Below, piece after piece: positions 37,040-59,713 of a stretch of DNA of 64,000 nucleotides (positions within the stretch are counted from its first letter, which is position 1; every line of letters begins with the position of its first letter). Below the pieces are notes generated by a model. That model was not told the origin of the DNA, searched no databases, and saw only the letters and a list, made by a program, of their open reading frames with translations. This stretch comes from Candidatus Micrarchaeia archaeon (lineage in GTDB: Archaea; Micrarchaeota; Micrarchaeia; Micrarchaeales; CABMGC01): the NCBI GenBank assembly GCA_049966395.1, contig JBMFUT010000002.1, forward strand, positions 1 through 64,000, given 5' to 3'. The position numbers were made by a program, and so were the translations under genes.

Positions 37040-39436
37040 ATGCCAGCGGCAGAATTCAAGGGCATGAAAGTTGAAGAAGCGATGAAAAAGCTTTCATGTA
37101 CCGCGGAGGGACTCAAAAGCGAAGAGGCTCAGAAGAGGCTCGCGTCATATGGTGCAAACGAAATACCCTCTAAGAAGAAGAGCATGGTCCTTCTTTTTCT
37201 GAGCAAGTTCTATGGCCCTATACCAATAATGCTCTGGCTCATAATAGTGATATCATACCTGCTGGGCCACATGGTAGACTTTTATGTTGTGCTTGCGCTG
37301 CTCTTTTTCAATTCTATAGTCTCTTTTGCGGAGGAATACAAGGCAGACTCTTCGATAGAAATGCTCAAGAAGAGGCTAGTTGTCAAGGCAAGGGTCCTGC
37401 GCTCAGGATCTTGGATAGAGATAGACGCTAAATACGTCGTTCCGGGAGACATAATGAGGGTGCGGCTAGGCGACATCGTAGCCGCCGATGCGAAGGTAAT
37501 AGAGCCTGAAGGACTCGAGGCAAATGAAGCTGCGCTTACCGGAGAATCAATGCCTGTTGCAAAGTCAAAGTCTGATATGCTTTATACGGGCTCTTCAATA
37601 ACCCATGGCGAGGGAACGTGCGTAGTTGTTGCAACTGGGATAAACACTTACTATGGCAAGACGGCGAAGCTTGTAGAGGAGGCAAGGCCGAGGTCGCACC
37701 TTGAGGATACGATAATGTCTATAGTAAAGTACCTGGTAGCGGCAGACCTGGCAATAGTGCTCCTGATGTTCGCATATGGAGTAATTGTGCTGCATTCCGA
37801 GATAGCGATACTGCTTCCATTTTCTCTAGTGGTGATACTCGCTTCAGTTCCGGTGGCGCTGCCTGCCGCATTCACTGTAGCTATGGCGCTCGGGACAGAG
37901 AGGCTTGCCAATAGGCATGTGCTCATAACAAAACTAGAGGCGCTTGAGGAAACTTCCAACATGAATGTGCTGTGCCTTGACAAGACAGGCACAATAACCG
38001 AAAACAAGATTTTCGTCGAGCAAATGAGTGCGACGGGCTGCGGCGAGGAAGAGCTTGCAAGGTTTGCCGCCGAAGCCTCGAGGGCGGAAGATAAAGACCC
38101 CATAGACGCCGCAATGCTGGAAAAGGCAAAGGCGATGGGAGTAGAGCAGGGCAAGCAGATAAAATTCGTGCCTTTCGATCCTAGCTCAAAGAGAACAGAA
38201 GCCGAAATATCATTTGGCAAAGCTATCTATCGCGTTTCAAAAGGCGCGCCGCAGGTAATCGCGCAGCTTTGCAAACTAGGCACCTCTGAGCTTAAGAAAT
38301 TGAATTCGATAGTAGAGAAGTATTCTTCTTCTGGCTTCAGGAGCATAGCTGTTGCAAAGCAGTCAAATGGCAAGTGGCGCCTCATGGGTGTTGTTGCGCT
38401 TTCAGACAGGATAAAGCCCGACTCCCAAAAGTTTATAAGGGAACTAATATCTCTGGGCATAAGGCCGAAGATGCTTACAGGCGACAACATTGCGGTGGCT
38501 GAGCAGGTTGCGTCTGAGCTGAATCTTGGCAAGAATGTTCTCGATGCATCATCATTCGATAGGCTCACCGAAAAGGAAATGGCGATTGCTGCTGAAAACA
38601 CCGACGTCTTTGCAGGCATATATCCGTCAGACAAGTACAAAATAGTGAAGGCGCTGCAACAGCGCAAGTACCTTGTTGGAATGACAGGAGACGGAATAAA
38701 TGATGCGCCAGCCATAAAGCAGGCGGAGGTAGGCATCGCGGTGGAGAATGCCACAGACGTGGCAAAAAGCACGGCCGACCTGGTGCTCACAAGGAACGGC
38801 ATCGACGTCATTGTCGAGGCAATAAAGGAAAGCAGGAGGATATTCGAGAGAATGCTTACCTATACTATGGTAAAAATAGCAAGAGTGATACAGATAGTAG
38901 GGTTCATAGCCATAATCTACCTTGCCTTAGGATTTCTGCCAGTACTCTCGCTGCAGCTTATACTGCTCATATTTACCAATGACCTCATAAACATATCTAT
39001 AGCGACAGACAATGTAAGCTTCTCAAAGAGACCTACCGAATGGGACGTCAAGCAGATAACCTACGCCTCTTCGATTTTCGGCGTGCTGCTCGTGTTAGGC
39101 GCGCTCTCGCTTTCATATATTGACATCGCTATCCTGCACCTGAGTACGGCAGAATTCCAAACTACAATATTCCTGATGTTCGTGGTGACAGACAAGCTCG
39201 TGCTCTTCAACATAAGAACAAGGGACGCTCTGGCGTGGCGCATAAGGCCAAGCTCCACTCTCACAATAGCTGCTTTGGTAGGGATAACTGCGGGTATAGT
39301 ACTTTCTTACTTTGGAATACTGATGGCAAGAATAAGCGCATTGGCCCTTGCGGCGGTACTACTGGTGTCTCTTGCGTTTTTCGTCATTACAGAATACGCC
39401 AAGCCAGCGATTTTCAAGAAGTTTGGTATATTATGA
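37040..39436 (+). CDS. P-type ATPase, P3A plasma-membrane proton-efflux type
   Basis: LTGES, SVPVALP, DKTGT, PFDP..KRTE, KGAP, MLTGDN, GDGINDAP, and TND in TM6. Confidence 0.93.
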   Translation: MPAAEFKGMKVEEAMKKLSCTAEGLKSEEAQKRLASYGANEIPSKKKSMVLLFLSKFYGPIPIMLWLIIVISYLLGHMVDFYVVLALLFFNSIVSFAEEYKADSSIEMLKKRLVVKARVLRSGSWIEIDAKYVVPGDIMRVRLGDIVAADAKVIEPEGLEANEAALTGESMPVAKSKSDMLYTGSSITHGEGTCVVVATGINTYYGKTAKLVEEARPRSHLEDTIMSIVKYLVAADLAIVLLMFAYGVIVLHSEIAILLPFSLVVILASVPVALPAAFTVAMALGTERLANRHVLITKLEALEETSNMNVLCLDKTGTITENKIFVEQMSATGCGEEELARFAAEASRAEDKDPIDAAMLEKAKAMGVEQGKQIKFVPFDPSSKRTEAEISFGKAIYRVSKGAPQVIAQLCKLGTSELKKLNSIVEKYSSSGFRSIAVAKQSNGKWRLMGVVALSDRIKPDSQKFIRELISLGIRPKMLTGDNIAVAEQVASELNLGKNVLDASSFDRLTEKEMAIAAENTDVFAGIYPSDKYKIVKALQQRKYLVGMTGDGINDAPAIKQAEVGIAVENATDVAKSTADLVLTRNGIDVIVEAIKESRRIFERMLTYTMVKIARVIQIVGFIAIIYLALGFLPVLSLQLILLIFTNDLINISIATDNVSFSKRPTEWDVKQITYASSIFGVLLVLGALSLSYIDIAILHLSTAEFQTTIFLMFVVTDKLVLFNIRTRDALAWRIRPSSTLTIAALVGITAGIVLSYFGILMARISALALAAVLLVSLAFFVITEYAKPAIFKKFGIL

Positions 39437-41469: not shown

Positions 41470-41864
41470 GCAGATAATATATATTTCAAAAAGTTTATAA
41501 TCCATTACAAGAAAACTGTGGCCTTCAGGCCGCTGATAAATTGTCCATTGCAGGTTAAGTTAATGGAGATAAATATATAAATATAGACTGCAATCCAATA
41601 TTTTAGATGCATAAGGGCTTCGAGGCCACAAAATGCAAAGGAACGCCTCGCAACCTGTTCGCCGATACCGCGTATGACAGCTAGAAAAGGCAGACTGCAA
41701 AGTATATAAATACTTCTGCTCATAATACTTCCTTATATATGCAGTTAAAGAAGGATGTGCTTTACGGCAGGGCTTGACTGCATTCGCCCAACGAGGGCGC
41801 TAAGCAGGCTCAAAAATCCAAATACTTTAGCTGTGATAGGCACTGGAAATTGCTAGATGATCTT

Positions 41865-42164
41865 ATGGCTGACCTTGGCAGAGACATAAGGCTTGCTGTG
41901 GACACCGGTAAGGTGGCCATAGGCGCAAAAGAAGCCGCTAAAGCTATAAACGCCGATTCGGCAAAGCTTGTGATCGTGGCTTCGAGAGGGATGAAGGAAG
42001 CCGTAGCAGACATGCTTCACACATGCAAGGTCGCAGGCGTGAAAGTAATAAAGTTCGAAGGCAGTGCCATGGAATTGGGAGCAACGTGCGGCAAGCCGTA
42101 CTCAATAAACGCAATGGCAGTGCTGGAGCCTGGCAACTCAAACATACTTAGCGAAAACTATTAA
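41865..42164 (+). CDS. rpl30e: Ribosomal protein eL30 (L30e)
   Basis: AVDTGKVAIG, AKLVIVA, ELGATCGKPY, EPGNSNI. Confidence 0.95.
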   Translation: MADLGRDIRLAVDTGKVAIGAKEAAKAINADSAKLVIVASRGMKEAVADMLHTCKVAGVKVIKFEGSAMELGATCGKPYSINAMAVLEPGNSNILSENY

Positions 42165-42177
42165 CAAAAGTGATTTA

Positions 42178-42606
42178 TTGGCGAAGGGAGAATTTGCTGC
42201 GAAGGTGCTCTCTAAGAAGAGGAAAGAGCAGCGTATGCTTAAAAAATGGTGGAAGAGGAAGCATTTCAAGCTGAAGCAGAAATACGATCCTGTTGGCACA
42301 GTGCCTATGGCAAGGGCAATAGTGCTGCAGAAGTTCGCTTTGCAGCAGAAGCAGCCGCACAGCGGCCAGATAAAAGCCGTGAGGGTGCAGCTGATAAAGA
42401 ACGGAAAAGTTGTAGGTGCCTACGTGCCTTACGATGGTGCAATAAGCTTCATAGACGAGCACGACGAGGTTACAATACAGGGCCTTGGAGGCTCGCAAAG
42501 AGGCCAGATGGGTTCGATACCAGGGCTCAAGTACAGAGTTATAGCAGTCAACGGTGCTGACCTTTTCGAAGTGGTCAAAGGCAAAAAGGAGAAGCCTAAG
42601 AGATGA
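42178..42606 (+). CDS. rps12: Ribosomal protein uS12 (divergent conserved loops)
   Basis: GEFAAK, VRVQLIKNGK, P.DGAISFIDEHDEV, GKKEKPR; position in the str-like operon. Confidence 0.96.
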   Translation: MAKGEFAAKVLSKKRKEQRMLKKWWKRKHFKLKQKYDPVGTVPMARAIVLQKFALQQKQPHSGQIKAVRVQLIKNGKVVGAYVPYDGAISFIDEHDEVTIQGLGGSQRGQMGSIPGLKYRVIAVNGADLFEVVKGKKEKPKR

Positions 42607-43379
42607 TGATTATGGATCAAGCAGAGAGCAACAACGCAAAAGCTGCAGAAGCGGCACAGGCGCCAGCGCCTGAAGCAGCAGCCCCCGCAGCACCAAAGAA
42701 GAGACAGAGGAAGCAGGCTGCGGCAAAGGAAGTGCCTTCTGAAAAGGCGGAGAAGCCGCAGAAGGCAAAAGTGCAGAGCATTCTGCTTTTCGACAAGTAC
42801 AGCTTCGACGATATAGTTGTTGAGGACAGGAGCCTCGCGGAATACATGAACATGAGTGTGAGAAGATACCCTAACATATACGGCAGGAGGAAAAATCACG
42901 CCTATTACACATCCCACATAAACATCGTCGAAAGGCTTGTAAACAAGCTGATGAGGGGAGGCACAGGGCGCAAAGTTGGCGGCAAGGTCATAAGAACTGA
43001 AGGAAGGCTGCAGGGCAAGAAAATAAAGACAATGCACATAGTTGAGGATGCATTCGACATAATAAACAGCAAGACTGGAAAGAATCCTCTCCAGAAGTTC
43101 ATAGAGGCGCTGGAGCACGCCGCACCTATAGAAGACACTACAAGAGTAAGATACGGAGGCATAACTTATAATGTTGCCGTGGACATAAGCTCAAAAAGGA
43201 GGGTCGACGTCGCGCTGAAGAACATAGCCCTGGCGGCAATAACCGGCGGCTTCAACAGCAGGAAGAGCATTTCTGAGGCTCTGGCAGACGAGATAATACT
43301 CGCAGCTAATGGAGATCCAAACAGCTATGCAATAAAGAAGCGCACTGACGCGGAAAGGATGGCAAGAAGCGCAAGATAA
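42603..43379 (+). CDS. rps7: Ribosomal protein uS7 with an Ala/Pro/Lys-rich N-terminal extension
   Basis: IVERLVNKLMR, AVDIS..RRVDVAL, LADEII.AA, ERMARSAR. Confidence 0.96.
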   Translation: MMIMDQAESNNAKAAEAAQAPAPEAAAPAAPKKRQRKQAAAKEVPSEKAEKPQKAKVQSILLFDKYSFDDIVVEDRSLAEYMNMSVRRYPNIYGRRKNHAYYTSHINIVERLVNKLMRGGTGRKVGGKVIRTEGRLQGKKIKTMHIVEDAFDIINSKTGKNPLQKFIEALEHAAPIEDTTRVRYGGITYNVAVDISSKRRVDVALKNIALAAITGGFNSRKSISEALADEIILAANGDPNSYAIKKRTDAERMARSAR

Positions 43380-43393
43380 AGATAGTGGTTCTT

Positions 43394-45586
43394 ATGGTAA
43401 GAAAAGAGTTTGTGGCTGAAGAGGCAGCTCACATAATGAGAAACATAAGCAAGATCAGGAACGTAGCCATAATAGCGCACGTCCACCACGGAAAGACGAC
43501 GCTGACAGACTCTCTGCTGGCAAAGGCGGGCATAATAGCAAAGACTGTTGCAGGGGAAGTGCTGTATACTAATTACGACGTCATAGAGAAGGACAGGCGC
43601 ATGACAATAAAATCCGCAAACATATCACTTGCCTTTTCTTACAACAATGAAGATTACATAATAAACCTGATAGACACGCCGGGTCACGTTGATTTCGGAG
43701 GCCACGTCACAAGGTCGATGAGGGCTGTGGATGGAGTAGTGCTTGTTGTAGACCCAGTGGAAGGCATAATGCCTCAGACAGAAACAGTGCTGAGGCAGGC
43801 GCTGAAGGAGCGCGCCAAGCCAGTGCTTTTCATAAACAAGGTGGACAGGCTTCTTAACGAGCTGAGGCTGAACCAGGACCAGGTTTACGAAAGGCTTCTT
43901 GCGCTTATAAACGAGGTAAATTCTCTGATAGACAGGTATGTGCCAGACGAATTTGCTGGAAAGTGGCACGTAAGCGTCGAGAACGGAAGCGTGTGCATAG
44001 GATCTGCCTACAAGAAGTGGGCATTGTCAATAAAGATGATGCAGCGCTACAAGGTAACTTTCAAGGACATTTACGAATACACTGCAAAGAACGACGAGGA
44101 AAAGCTCCAGGAGGTTGCGCCTATAGAAGAGGCGGTTCTCTCGATGATAATAGAGCACCTGCCACCGCCAAGCGAGGCGCAGCGCTACAGGATACCGCAA
44201 ATATGGCATGGAGACATAAACAGCGACATAGGCAAGGCGATGGTAAATGTAGATGCCAACGCCCCAGCTTGCATTGCAATATTCGGCATAGTCTACGACC
44301 AGCACAGCGGAGAGGTTGCTATAGGAAGGGTCTTCAGCGGCACTGTCAAAAAGGGTACAGAGTTATACGTTTCGGGGAAGCCAGATCCACAGCGCGTCCA
44401 GCTTGTCGGAATATTCATGGGCCCTGATAGGGTCACAGTGGACAGCATATCTGCCGGCAACATAGCCGCGATAGTAGGCATAAAAGATGTTTCAATAGGC
44501 GACACTGCAAGCGAGGTAGTAATTGAGCCATTCGAGCAAATAAAGCACTATTCGCCTCCTGTGGTTACCAAAGCCATAGAGGCAAAGGATACAAAGGACA
44601 CCATGAAGCTCATAGAGGCTTTGAGAGAGCTTTCTAAATCTGACCCCACGCTGGTAGTGGAAATAGACCAGGAGACAGGCGAGCACAAAATAAGCGGAAT
44701 GGGCGAGCTTCATCTTGACGTTATAGAGACAAAAATACGCGACGCATATGGAATTCCGATAGTGACGAGCGAGCCTATTGTGGTTTATAGGGAAACAATT
44801 GAGAAGGAAGTAAAAGACATAGAAGGCAAAGCGCCTAACAAGCATTCCAGATTCTATGTAAACGTAGCACCTCTTGAGCAGGGAGTTATAGACCTTATAG
44901 AAAACGGCACCCTAAAGGAGGGCAGGCCAAAGGGAAAGCAGTATGTCGACGCTCTCATAGAAGCAGGGCTGTCAAGGGAAGAGGCAAAGGGAGTGGAGGA
45001 CATATCAAACAGGAGCATGCTCATAGACGCAACGCACGGAGTGCAATACATGAACGAAGTCATGGAGCTGCTTATAGAAGGTTTCGAAGAGGCAATGAAC
45101 GACGGGCCTCTCGCAAGGGAAAAATGTTCTGGTATAAAGGTCTCAATAACAGATGCCACGATACACGAAGATCCGGTGCACAGAGGTCCGGCGCAGATTA
45201 TACCTGCAATGAGAAGGCCCATATACGCCGGAATGCTAACTGCGGGGGTTGTGCTTCTCGAGCCAAAGCAAAAATTCACTATTAACGCTCCTCAAGAATA
45301 CATGTCCGACATAATAGGCATGCTTCAGAGCAAGAGGGGGCAGATAATCGATATACAGCAGGAAAAAGAGCAGGTGACAATAGTAGCAAAGATGCCCGTG
45401 GCAGAAGTGATAAAGGGCTTCTCAGACGAAATGAGGAGTATAACTAAGGGCAGGGCAATATGGTACCCAGAATATGCCGGCTACGAAAAGATGCCGAAAG
45501 ATTTGCAGGAGCAGGTAGTAAGGGAAATAAGGAAGAGGAAGGGACAGCCGCCGGAGCCTCCGGTGCCGAGCCAGTTCCTCGACTGA
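43394..45586 (+). CDS. fusA: Elongation factor aEF-2
   Basis: DTPGHVDFGG, NKVD, GMGELHL, diphthamide loop HEDPVHRGPAQ; follows uS12-uS7. Confidence 0.97.
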   Translation: MVRKEFVAEEAAHIMRNISKIRNVAIIAHVHHGKTTLTDSLLAKAGIIAKTVAGEVLYTNYDVIEKDRRMTIKSANISLAFSYNNEDYIINLIDTPGHVDFGGHVTRSMRAVDGVVLVVDPVEGIMPQTETVLRQALKERAKPVLFINKVDRLLNELRLNQDQVYERLLALINEVNSLIDRYVPDEFAGKWHVSVENGSVCIGSAYKKWALSIKMMQRYKVTFKDIYEYTAKNDEEKLQEVAPIEEAVLSMIIEHLPPPSEAQRYRIPQIWHGDINSDIGKAMVNVDANAPACIAIFGIVYDQHSGEVAIGRVFSGTVKKGTELYVSGKPDPQRVQLVGIFMGPDRVTVDSISAGNIAAIVGIKDVSIGDTASEVVIEPFEQIKHYSPPVVTKAIEAKDTKDTMKLIEALRELSKSDPTLVVEIDQETGEHKISGMGELHLDVIETKIRDAYGIPIVTSEPIVVYRETIEKEVKDIEGKAPNKHSRFYVNVAPLEQGVIDLIENGTLKEGRPKGKQYVDALIEAGLSREEAKGVEDISNRSMLIDATHGVQYMNEVMELLIEGFEEAMNDGPLAREKCSGIKVSITDATIHEDPVHRGPAQIIPAMRRPIYAGMLTAGVVLLEPKQKFTINAPQEYMSDIIGMLQSKRGQIIDIQQEKEQVTIVAKMPVAEVIKGFSDEMRSITKGRAIWYPEYAGYEKMPKDLQEQVVREIRKRKGQPPEPPVPSQFLD

Positions 45587-45672
45587 AACAAAATGCGAAG
45601 CAATAAGTATTTATATATACTCATTCAAATAGGAAACCACTGATTGTTCCACCAATGAGACGAGGTGCTGTA

Positions 45673-46134
45673 ATGGCAAAATCATACGTGAAATTCGAAG
45701 TATCTAAAGAAGTGGCCGACAAGGCCTACGAGGCAGTGAGAGCAGCAAAGCAGAACGGGACAGTGAAGAAAGGGATGAACGAGACGACAAAGAGCATAGA
45801 ACGCGGCCTTGCGAGCCTAGTTGTAATTGCCGAAGACGTCGAGCCAGAGGAAGTGGTAATGCACTTGCCAATGCTTTGCGAGCAGAAGAAGATTCCATTT
45901 GTTTATGTCCCTGCCAAGCTCAACCTGGGCAAGGCAATAGGACTAAACGTGGGCTGTGCTGCAGTTGCAATAGAAAAGATGGGCGCCGCCGAGCCTATGG
46001 TAAAAGAAATAGTCGCCAAGGTGACAGGAAAGCCTGCAACTTCGCAATCAAAGCCAGTTGGAGAAGAAGCTCCGAAGCAGGAGCAGAAGCCCAAGCAGCA
46101 AAAGCAGAAGCAAGAGCAAAAACCAGAAGCGTAA
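45673..46134 (+). CDS. rpl7ae: Ribosomal protein eL8 (L7Ae) with a Q/K/E-rich C-terminal tail
   Basis: [38 protein letters not shown]. Confidence 0.96.
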
Positions 46135-58783: not shown

Positions 58784-59713
58784 TTAGCCTTCGCTCTTCT
58801 TTGCCTCTTCAATCATCTCCAGCGCTTCAATAAGCTCGTTGGCGCTTAGAAGCGGTTTCCTGAGCCTTTCATCGTCATCAGTGACCAGCCTGGGACAAGC
58901 AGTGTTGACGAAGGCATCGATTTCCATCATGTTGTTCAAGGAGTCGAAGTCGAAAGTGTTCGAAACCAGCAAGGCCGCCCGGAGCCCAGCCTTTTCTATC
59001 CTTTCCTTTATGATCTTGGCAAGCGCCATGTTGTACTGGCCGTTCTTCGTGCTAACCAATATTCCGAAACTCTTTGCATACATCGCGCTCAATATTCTGC
59101 CTTTTGACCTCTTTTTGTAGGCCTCTCTATAGCTATCTATAAACTCTACCTTTTTCGCAAATGGCTCTACGACAAGGAAAGGCTTGGTGGTTGCGAGAAG
59201 CGCGCCCATTGGATGGAAGAGCCCTCCGCCAAAGTAGACGAAAGCGTCAACATCTCCATCTATTCTAGCCGCGCTGCCTACGTCGCATCCGAGTATCTGG
59301 CCTTCGTGCCTCGCGAAGCCATAAGGCTTCCCTATTAAAACCTTCTTTCCGTGCTCCTCGTAGAAGCGCTTTATTTCCGGAAGCTGCTGTACATGTTGGA
59401 CAGTCGTCACTACTCCTATGGTATCGTGGCCCTCGAGCATTTTCAGCGATTCGGGAAGCAGCTCGAGGCTTGCGTCTATCCTGTATTCAACATATTCTAC
59501 GTTGAAATCGACGCGCATGAATTCAGCATGGCCGAAATGCACTAGCTTGTCCGCGCCTATGCGCCTTGCCTCGTCCAATGCCAGGTCGCACGCTCCGAAA
59601 GTCGGCGATGCCGATATCGCAACCTCGTTGCCCTCTGCTTCGAGTTTTCTTGCGTACTCAAGAGCGTGCTGCTTTAGCCCTTCAGGAAACTGCAAAAGTA
59701 TCTTCATTGCCAT
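58784..59713 (-). CDS. dph2: Diphthamide biosynthesis enzyme Dph2
   Basis: LQFPEGLK, FGACD, HFGH, GQILGC, TACPR (three Fe-S Cys). Confidence 0.95.
   Translation of the reverse strand: MAMKILLQFPEGLKQHALEYARKLEAEGNEVAISASPTFGACDLALDEARRIGADKLVHFGHAEFMRVDFNVEYVEYRIDASLELLPESLKMLEGHDTIGVVTTVQHVQQLPEIKRFYEEHGKKVLIGKPYGFARHEGQILGCDVGSAARIDGDVDAFVYFGGGLFHPMGALLATTKPFLVVEPFAKKVEFIDSYREAYKKRSKGRILSAMYAKSFGILVSTKNGQYNMALAKIIKERIEKAGLRAALLVSNTFDFDSLNNMMEIDAFVNTACPRLVTDDDERLRKPLLSANELIEALEMIEEAKKSEG

Follow-up and report, generated by a model that had tools for sequence, protein, structure and literature searches.

A histidine-type GTPase centre in the single EF-2 of a Micrarchaeales clade and co-variation of its switch I residue 69 with nucleotide 2655 of the 23S rRNA

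Analysis of a 64,000-nucleotide stretch of a Candidatus Micrarchaeia archaeon genome (GenBank assembly GCA_049966395.1, contig JBMFUT010000002.1, positions 1 to 64,000, hereafter the window) revealed a gene encoding archaeal elongation factor 2 (aEF-2) in which the P-loop aspartate and the switch I glycine of the monovalent cation site, and the switch I aspartate at position T-11, are replaced by His31, Arg69 and Asn60. The variant is real, fixed across the lineage and conserved under selection. The three sites are evolutionarily coupled, and the His-type change recurs independently in other archaea. Within the Micrarchaeales clade, residue 69 is either Arg or Lys and varies with the bulged G (Escherichia coli G2655) of the sarcin-ricin loop (SRL) of the 23S rRNA. 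The mechanism preferred here, to which an even chance is given on the strength of sequence comparison, is that the cation site would have been lost, with His31 acting as a surrogate and Arg/Lys69 facing the SRL.

The gene and the motifs concerned are as follows:

43394-45586, + strand: aEF-2 gene, 730 amino acids from ATG; in-frame GTG start at 43385
43475-43498, + strand: P-loop AHVHHGKT, residues 28-35; His31 is CAC at 43484-43486
43565-43579, + strand: N-terminal part of switch I, YTNYD; Asn60 is AAT at 43571-43573, replacing the T-11 Asp, and Tyr58 replaces Val
43592-43612, + strand: C-terminal part of switch I, DRRMTIK; Arg69 is CGC at 43598-43600, and Met70 replaces Ile
43604-43606, + strand: Thr71 of switch I, the Mg2+ ligand
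43673-43687, + strand: switch II/G3 DTPGH, residues 94-98, with the catalytic His98 retained
43835-43846, + strand: G4 NKVD, residues 148-151, unaltered
45164-45187, + strand: diphthamide loop HEDPVHRG, residues 591-598, in domain IV, unaltered; a translocase hallmark

Switch I of the window aEF-2 reads YTNYDVIEKDRRMTIK (longer stretch, VLYTNYDVIEKDRRMTIK). In an ungapped HMMER alignment to the Pyrococcus aEF-2 5h7j/5h7k, His31 and Asn60 each stand opposite Asp, Arg69 opposite Gly and Met70 opposite Ile, which confirms the three substitutions read from the open reading frame in a first-pass annotation of the window. The closest solved relatives are the archaeal EF-2 structures 5h7j, 9ou7, 6q2d, 8hl1 and 6u45. 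The canonical archaeal EF-2s of P. horikoshii (5h7j/5h7l) and Methanoperedens nitroreducens (MnEF-2, 6u45) have the same five domains, DTPGH, NKVD, diphthamide loop and operon as the window EF-2 and, as far as its context indicates, the same role of sole translocase, and the numbering of the window protein matches that of MnEF-2 at the active-site residues compared (31, 69, 71, 98 and NKVD 148-151); MnEF-2, in contrast, has Asp31, Gly69 and the T-11 Asp where the window protein has His, Arg and Asn.

Regarding the cation cofactor, the relevant passages of three papers describe a monovalent cation that is coordinated by the P-loop Asp and by a backbone carbonyl of switch I, lies between the alpha and gamma phosphates and does what the arginine finger does in other GTPases (PMC8244253, PMC4342817, PMC6310460). 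For Methanoperedens EF-2, passages of PMC8244253 assign the nascent cation site to the carboxylate of Asp31 and the carbonyl of Gly69, Mg binding to Thr71 and catalysis to His98. Both signature residues of this site are replaced in the window EF-2 (P-loop Asp by His31, switch I Gly by Arg69), so that the joint change of both ligands, together with the T-11 Asp, had been correctly recognized in the first-pass annotation (ligand roles as in the passages cited from PMC8244253 and PMC4342817). Since the other translational GTPases of the genome retain the P-loop Asp, the altered P-loop is specific to EF-2; these are an aEF1A-like GTPase of 437 amino acids (GHIDHGKS...ERGITID), a GTPase of 429 amino acids (GHKDHGKS...EGGLTID) and an aIF2-gamma-like GTPase of 411 amino acids (GHVDHGKT...KRSMTIK).

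Investigation of the nearest homologues, comprising the best 120 of 8000 scored sequences, all at least 71% identical, plus the query (n=121), revealed His31, Asn60, Arg/Lys69 and Met/Ile/Leu70 together in 119/121 sequences, with position 69 occupied by Arg or Lys in 120/121. The exceptions are P0111 (Leu31) and P0119, which is fully canonical (Asp, Asp, Gly, Ile); Leu31 of P0111 was discounted as a real variant, being a singleton in a 90% cluster whose other members have His. A scan of the phylum with one genome per species (401 genomes, the pattern AH[IVM]xHGK being found in 391) detected the His-specific pattern in the window's own genome, in 75/82 genomes of f1 and in 91/94 genomes of f3, which are two Micrarchaeales GTDB families (166/176 together), and in 0/224 genomes across 33 other families. 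An AHVRHGKT match in genome G013 was dropped, having no EF-2 match at E <= 1e-10. Both CAC and CAT codons are used for the His, with synonymous variation around them, and the recurrence of these states in hundreds of related genomes, amid many synonymous differences, shows that the variant is neither chance nor error. The alternative of an artefact, that is a sequencing or assembly error or a mis-binned contig, has in its favour that each altered codon (CAC, AAT and CGC), as had already been pointed out, is a single base away from a canonical codon; against it stand the homologues just described, which come from many independent assemblies, the genomes of the two families with their synonymous variation, and the location of the gene within a 64-kb window in its usual operon. 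The conservation data effectively refute this alternative, the probability of which is taken as negligible, and the earlier judgement that sequencing error was unlikely holds. Logan contigs of one hot-spring metagenome study (three runs) matched a small share of the stretch, and none of them covered positions 43453-43656; no RNA data set with a match was listed.

Regarding the origin of the change, a quick IQ-TREE tree of 63 full-length EF-2 sequences was built, in which the EF-2s from five other Micrarchaeia families all have Asp/Asp/Gly/Ile. The branching order runs from these other families to f2 (G025, with Asp, Asp, Ser and Met) and then to an Asp-type trio of f1 (P0119, G006 and G022, support 99), which is the sister group of the His clade (support 100). 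The replacement of the P-loop Asp by His, of the switch I Gly by Arg/Lys and of the T-11 Asp by Asn would thus be placed on the stem of one Micrarchaeales clade of two GTDB families. One f3 sequence of genus g27 (G366, locus L008, G366:C49) has the canonical Asp31/Asp60/Gly69 in the basal polytomy of the His clade and shares the background of that clade (Leu42, Tyr58, Lys66 and YT.YDVIEKK); grouping all His rows without G366 was not rejected (p-AU 0.196), and an SRL was not found in the G366 genome. Judged by its sequence, the G366 EF-2 would be an evolutionary intermediate or a triple revertant, unless its contig was mis-binned. Comparison of 120 His-clade with 9 Asp-type Micrarchaeia sequences showed that the only radical fixed differences are D31H, V58Y, D60N, Q66K and G69R/K, the remaining fixed differences (V42L, V8A, I154L, I171L, A201C, V247A and E370D) being conservative; the substitutions are concentrated in the active site.

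The SRL was examined because this loop of the 23S rRNA activates translational GTPases. The SRL of the window's own genome (G000:C8:27314-27330, - strand, locus L138, inside a match to Rfam LSU_rRNA_archaea) reads CUCAAUACGAGAGGAACG, the Rfam consensus being UAGUACGAGAGGAAC; written as AAUACGAGAGGAAC, it has an A in place of the bulged G, E. coli G2655, where the numbering was set by the wild-type and G2655U oligonucleotides printed in the part of PMC3496166 that describes them. A survey of 151 sampled genomes of the phylum, plus G005 and G114, found A at 2655 in 31 genomes, all of f1/f3, U in two genomes of f1/f3 (G026 and G114), and G in 60/60 genomes of other families showing the exact core, these last being core matches without Rfam check. 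Altogether 58 SRL regions were placed within LSU rRNA (the own region and 18/20, 1/7, 18/18 and 20/20 regions of successive Rfam checks), and they include every state entered in the f1/f2/f3 counts and in the 48-genome table below. Eight matches to the SRL pattern were dropped as non-rRNA, namely the 'C' matches of G058, G213, G248 and G332:C33, the 'U' matches of G532 and G141:C31, and those of G150:C2 and G154:C21. The genomes of the order that have an Asp-type EF-2 (G022, G006 and G025) have G at 2655. Genus g15 has A in some genomes and G in others, and genus g27 has A, G and U; since the rRNA fragments group by family and genus, base 2655 truly flips between close relatives.

Among 48 His-type genomes for which both the SRL base and switch I were available, the states are distributed as follows:

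SRL A: 27 genomes, Arg69 in 27 (26 RRM, 1 RRL)
SRL G: 19 genomes, Lys69 in 11 and Arg69 in 8 (4 RRI, 4 RRM)
SRL U: 2 genomes, Lys69 in both

Base A therefore occurs only with Arg (27/27), and Lys only with G or U (13/13). In a tree of full-length genes built without columns 69-71 (47 genomes and two outgroups), the SRL state changes nine times and Arg/Lys seven times, and among six independent pairs on well-supported branches about five change in the same way, none in the opposite way and about one is unchanged; a tree of 300-base EF-2 fragments, with only one pair on starred branches, was too weak and was set aside in favour of the full-length genes. Residue 69 ranks first among 539 variable EF-2 columns for association with the SRL state (p 1.4e-6). 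Base composition cannot account for the direction of the association, because it is the AT-rich Lys codon that accompanies G. The tracking of nucleotide 2655 by Arg or Lys suggests a contact with RNA and not with the phosphates alone; the keto oxygen of G or U (O6 or O4) would suit the ammonium group of Lys, whereas A has an amino group at that place.

Work on E. coli bears on the same nucleotide. According to the passages cited, switch I of EF-G docks at G2655 (PMC8668904), the G2655U change greatly reduces binding of the SRL to EF-G and lowers that to IF2 only two-fold (PMC3496166), and G2655C is a lethal change that blocks translocation (PMC2896532, citing Leonov 2003). By analogy, these observations fit a contact of the residue 69 region with the SRL. 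Such changes at 2655 are harmful in E. coli, whereas 33 genomes here naturally have A or U.

His-type EF-2s are also found in other archaea. The P-loop is visible in 113 of 150 representatives at 50% identity, with Asp in 111 and His in two (P0125 and P0155); P0125 stands for 136 clustered Thermoplasmata EF-2s that read AHIHHGKT...YLNFDEQEQARLLTIN. Scanning 185,579 species genomes for AHIHHGKT gave at least 120 loci, and among the loci listed are Woesearchaeota, Pacearchaeota, Nanoarchaeota, Nanopusillus acidilobi (complete genome CP010514), Thermoplasmata including 'Lutacidiplasmatales', and some metagenome-assembled genomes labelled Methanosarcinales. In the 117 readable loci among those listed, T-2, the position of residue 69, is Leu in 112, Glu in three and Cys in two and never Gly, and T-11 is Trp in 88 and Asn in 29 and never Asp. 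The co-occurrence of His and Arg, which the first-pass annotation had advised looking for, is seen inside the Micrarchaeales clade, where Lys also occurs, and is absent from these loci. Five His-type genomes of other lineages, including that of N. acidilobi, were searched whole and contain one EF-2 each. In phylogenetic terms, the Thermoplasmata His pair is the sister of an Asp-type Poseidoniia sequence (support 98), and the His sequences of the Woese/Pace/L054 type form a separate group (support 97). In a tree built without the columns from P-loop to switch I, His changes five times; in five independent pairs, loss of Gly goes the same way as His in 4.8 and loss of Asp in 4.5, the opposite way never occurring (sign test p = 0.0625, the best value that five pairs allow).

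The repeated joint replacement of both ligand residues makes loss of the cation site the best reading of these data. In the mechanism preferred here, the canonical Asp/Gly cation site would be gone in His-type EF-2s, and His31 would take the place of Asp plus cation beside the phosphates and the SRL; His is the best candidate for this stand-in because it is the sole replacement common to all His-type lineages. An arginine finger is not a general explanation since T-2 is basic only in the Micrarchaeales clade, and there Arg/Lys69 would be directed to the SRL near nucleotide 2655, rather than being a simple phosphate-directed finger; it probably faces the ribosome. The new contact of residue 69 may have freed the otherwise invariant bulged G to become A or U, in concert with the choice of Arg or Lys. 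A wider proposal joins these elements: that this EF-2 gave up K+ with His31 in place of Asp and cation, that residue 69 reads nucleotide 2655 (Arg with A, Lys with G or U) and so frees the bulged G, and that the cation-free His centre is a recurrent archaeal design shared with Woesearchaeota, Pacearchaeota, Nanopusillus and an order of Thermoplasmata. Taken as a whole this proposal is tentative and open to considerable doubt; K+-independent GTPase activation, as part of it, is plausible.

Several results weigh against the preferred mechanism or its wider form. P0155, which has Gln at T-2, is the sole His-type sequence to keep the T-11 Asp, and the T-2 position of the 111 Asp-type representatives accommodates C, S, A, Q, R, K and T as well, so that Gly is not strictly required there. 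Non-Gly residues at T-2 on an Asp background agree with a remark on eEF2 in Atkinson 2015, in the part of that paper concerned, namely that conservation of the cation motif is missing in eEF2 (PMC4342817). Regarding the rRNA, eight Arg-type genomes keep G; the Fisher test of the 48-genome table gives p = 1e-6 uncorrected for relatedness, and the sign test on the six pairs reaches only about 0.06 (median p 0.0625, range 0.031-0.125). EF-2 columns 697 (7e-6) and 175 (1.3e-5) are associated with the SRL state nearly as strongly as residue 69, and shared ancestry therefore explains part of the SRL signal. Among other His-type lineages G2655 is kept in 4/4 genomes, so that a general link between His-type EF-2 and variation at G2655 was rejected and the SRL link is confined to the Arg/Lys clade; for the phylum of G404, a scan of 121 genomes gave two unverified matches to non-G variants, compared with about 13 matches of a reversed control pattern. 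The orientation of His31 and Arg69 is deduced from sequence comparison, and the backbone carbonyl of residue 69 is still present, so that a cation could bind through other partners.

That last point leads to the alternative that the cation is still bound, through the residue 69 carbonyl, the phosphates, water and perhaps His31, the substitutions being near-neutral or compensatory drift in small, slow-growing symbionts and the SRL variation an unrelated relaxation. It agrees with the switch I ligand being a backbone atom, which a change of side chain need not remove (PMC8244253, in the passage on the ligand), and with the occurrence of non-Gly residues together with Asp in eukaryotic and some archaeal EF-2s (the representatives above, and PMC4342817 in part). 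Other departures in the SRL of DPANN genomes would also suit it: N. acidilobi differs not at G2655 but at the position of G2661, and genome G153 (family f21) retains the bulged G and likewise differs at the position of G2661. Drift leaves unexplained the strict conservation of His, Asn and a basic residue across two families and the fact that the changes came together repeatedly, in three or more distant lineages, with a single sequence in a mixed state. Nor are the Thermoplasmata carriers reduced symbionts, their genomes being about 1.8 Mb in size and lying on large contigs. Imidazole is moreover a poor ligand for alkali cations, which counts against a retained cation, and this alternative is considered unlikely.

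The built-in arginine finger proposed in the first-pass annotation would have Arg69, aided by His31, act on the alpha and gamma phosphates in the manner of the fingers, trans or cis, of Ras-GAP, G-alpha and hGBP, making GTPase activation independent of K+. A basic residue at position 69 in all but one of the nearest sequences and the joint alteration of both cation ligands speak for it, as do documented exchanges of K+ and an Arg finger within one GTPase family, in which dynamin uses K+/Na+ and hGBP a side chain at the same site (PMC6310460, in the passages on this family). Unlike EF-2, the dynamin family is not ribosome-activated. The hGBP1 finger belongs to the P-loop, where it takes the position corresponding to His31, and we know of no His that replaces the bound cation in an exchange of this type. 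Canonical EF-2 already has an Arg at T-3, one residue earlier, that has no finger role, which counts against this alternative. The Leu, Glu or Cys found at the residue 69 position in all 117 readable loci listed of other His-type lineages deprives the finger of generality, and the choice of Arg or Lys follows the rRNA base, for which a finger directed at phosphates has no need; in the form in which it was stated the finger does not stand, and it is regarded as quite improbable.

Regarding the identity of the gene, the neighbouring features were identified by Pfam as follows:

41850-42164, + strand: L30e
42178-42606, + strand: S12, upstream of S7 and EF-2
42603-43379, + strand: S7, directly upstream of EF-2
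45655-46134, after EF-2: L7Ae
58808-59689, - strand: dph2 (Diphthamide_syn, 242.7 bits against a cut-off of 33.2), first enzyme of diphthamide synthesis on EF-2

The genes for L30e, S12, S7, EF-2 and L7Ae are thus consecutive, and all five EF-2 domains (GTP_EFTU, GTP_EFTU_D2/EF-G_D2, EFG_III, EFG_IV and EFG_C) score above their Pfam cut-offs. With these domains, DxPGH and its catalytic His, NKxD, and HxDxxHRG accompanied by dph2, the protein belongs to the aEF-2 family, and Pfam and the motif positions bear out the earlier description of intact DTPGH, NKVD and diphthamide loop, a normal operon and dph2 in the window. The source genome comprises 693,655 bases in 34 contigs and is 89% complete; the second, canonical EF-2 that the first-pass annotation had advised looking for was not found in this 89%-complete genome, the sole other match being the 437-amino-acid GTPase at 29% identity. 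It might be supposed that the gene is a diverged EF-2 paralogue with another role, like aEF-2p, and archaeal EF-2 paralogues with intact G motifs do exist, the HxDxxHRG loop being the one lost in aEF-2p (PMC6143161, in the passages on paralogues). The window gene is single-copy, has this loop and dph2, lies in the S12-S7-EF-2 operon and nests among bona fide Micrarchaeia EF-2s in the tree, and a paralogue is accordingly highly improbable. From the sole copy and the operon context, we infer that the gene encodes the single working translocase of the organism.

Comparable losses of the cation ligands have been reported for other translational GTPases. In e/aIF2-gamma both cation-ligand positions are substituted (by Ala and Asn) and binding of the monovalent cation is lost, according to the relevant passage of Atkinson 2015 (PMC4342817, citing Kuhle and Ficner 2014). 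This is a different factor from the window EF-2, with other substituting residues. Its activation involves a separate protein, eIF5, with an arginine finger. The EF-G-2 (EFGII) of Thermus thermophilus is without the Asp and Gly of the cation motif and supports poly-Phe synthesis (PMC8244253), with Gly in the P-loop (PMC4342817), in the parts of these papers that treat it; it accompanies a canonical EF-G as an additional copy and lacks the catalytic His, whereas the window EF-2 is the sole copy and keeps His98. No paper describing a rebuilt EF-2 centre or variation at G2655 was found, and the supplementary alignments of Atkinson 2015 and Narrowe 2018, which were left unopened, could show the residues uncommented; the passages searched of Narrowe et al. 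(2018) on EF-2 paralogues contain no occurrence of the P-loop.

The P-loop Asp and the switch I Gly are treated as near-universal in translational GTPases and are the basis of the model of K+ as an arginine finger. Natural lineages whose only EF-2 lacks both residues, including the cultivated N. acidilobi, offer a ready test of that model, and the His-type lineages are candidates for a K+-independent translocase. Natural variation of the bulged G2655, which is among the most conserved ribosomal nucleotides and the mutation of which is lethal in E. coli, in step with one EF-2 residue may matter more. Protein and rRNA would then have co-evolved at the GTPase-activating centre, which is rarely seen, and the co-variation points to a specific contact. 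EF-2 and 23S rRNA also serve as phylogenetic markers and benchmarks of conservation, and these lineages break invariants assumed for both.

Further observations were made alongside. The SRL-like 14-mer AGUACGAAAGGAAC was found in N. acidilobi (locus L140, G402:C1:569680-569693) and in G153, as a candidate 23S rRNA by pattern alone; it has a GAGA tetraloop in which A stands where E. coli has G2661, the site cut by sarcin. In the aIF2-gamma-like GTPase of the window's genome (C10, locus L006), Ser replaces Gly at T-2 while the P-loop Asp stays. Many genomes of other Micrarchaeia families (f4, f9, f11 and others, e.g. G041, G075 and G072) have a second AH[IV]DHGK site, and these second matches are not EF-2 at E <= 1e-20; the site presumably belongs to another EF-2-family or translational GTPase that is missing from the window's family. 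Among the EF-2 homologues, P0123, P0124, P0126-P0128, P0130, P0131, P0133 and P0137 are 916-1233 amino acids long, no P-loop motif was found in them and their matches begin only after query residue 21-34, so that these genes look interrupted near the P-loop, possibly by inteins. Within the window, a P-type cation-transporting ATPase (E1-E2_ATPase, Cation_ATPase_N) is encoded at 37040-39436 (+ strand), 4 kb upstream of the EF-2 operon, and no link to the cation question was found for it. The S7 protein is extended at its N terminus by about 95 residues with a high content of Ala, Pro, Lys and Glu, its Pfam S7 domain starting at residue 99.

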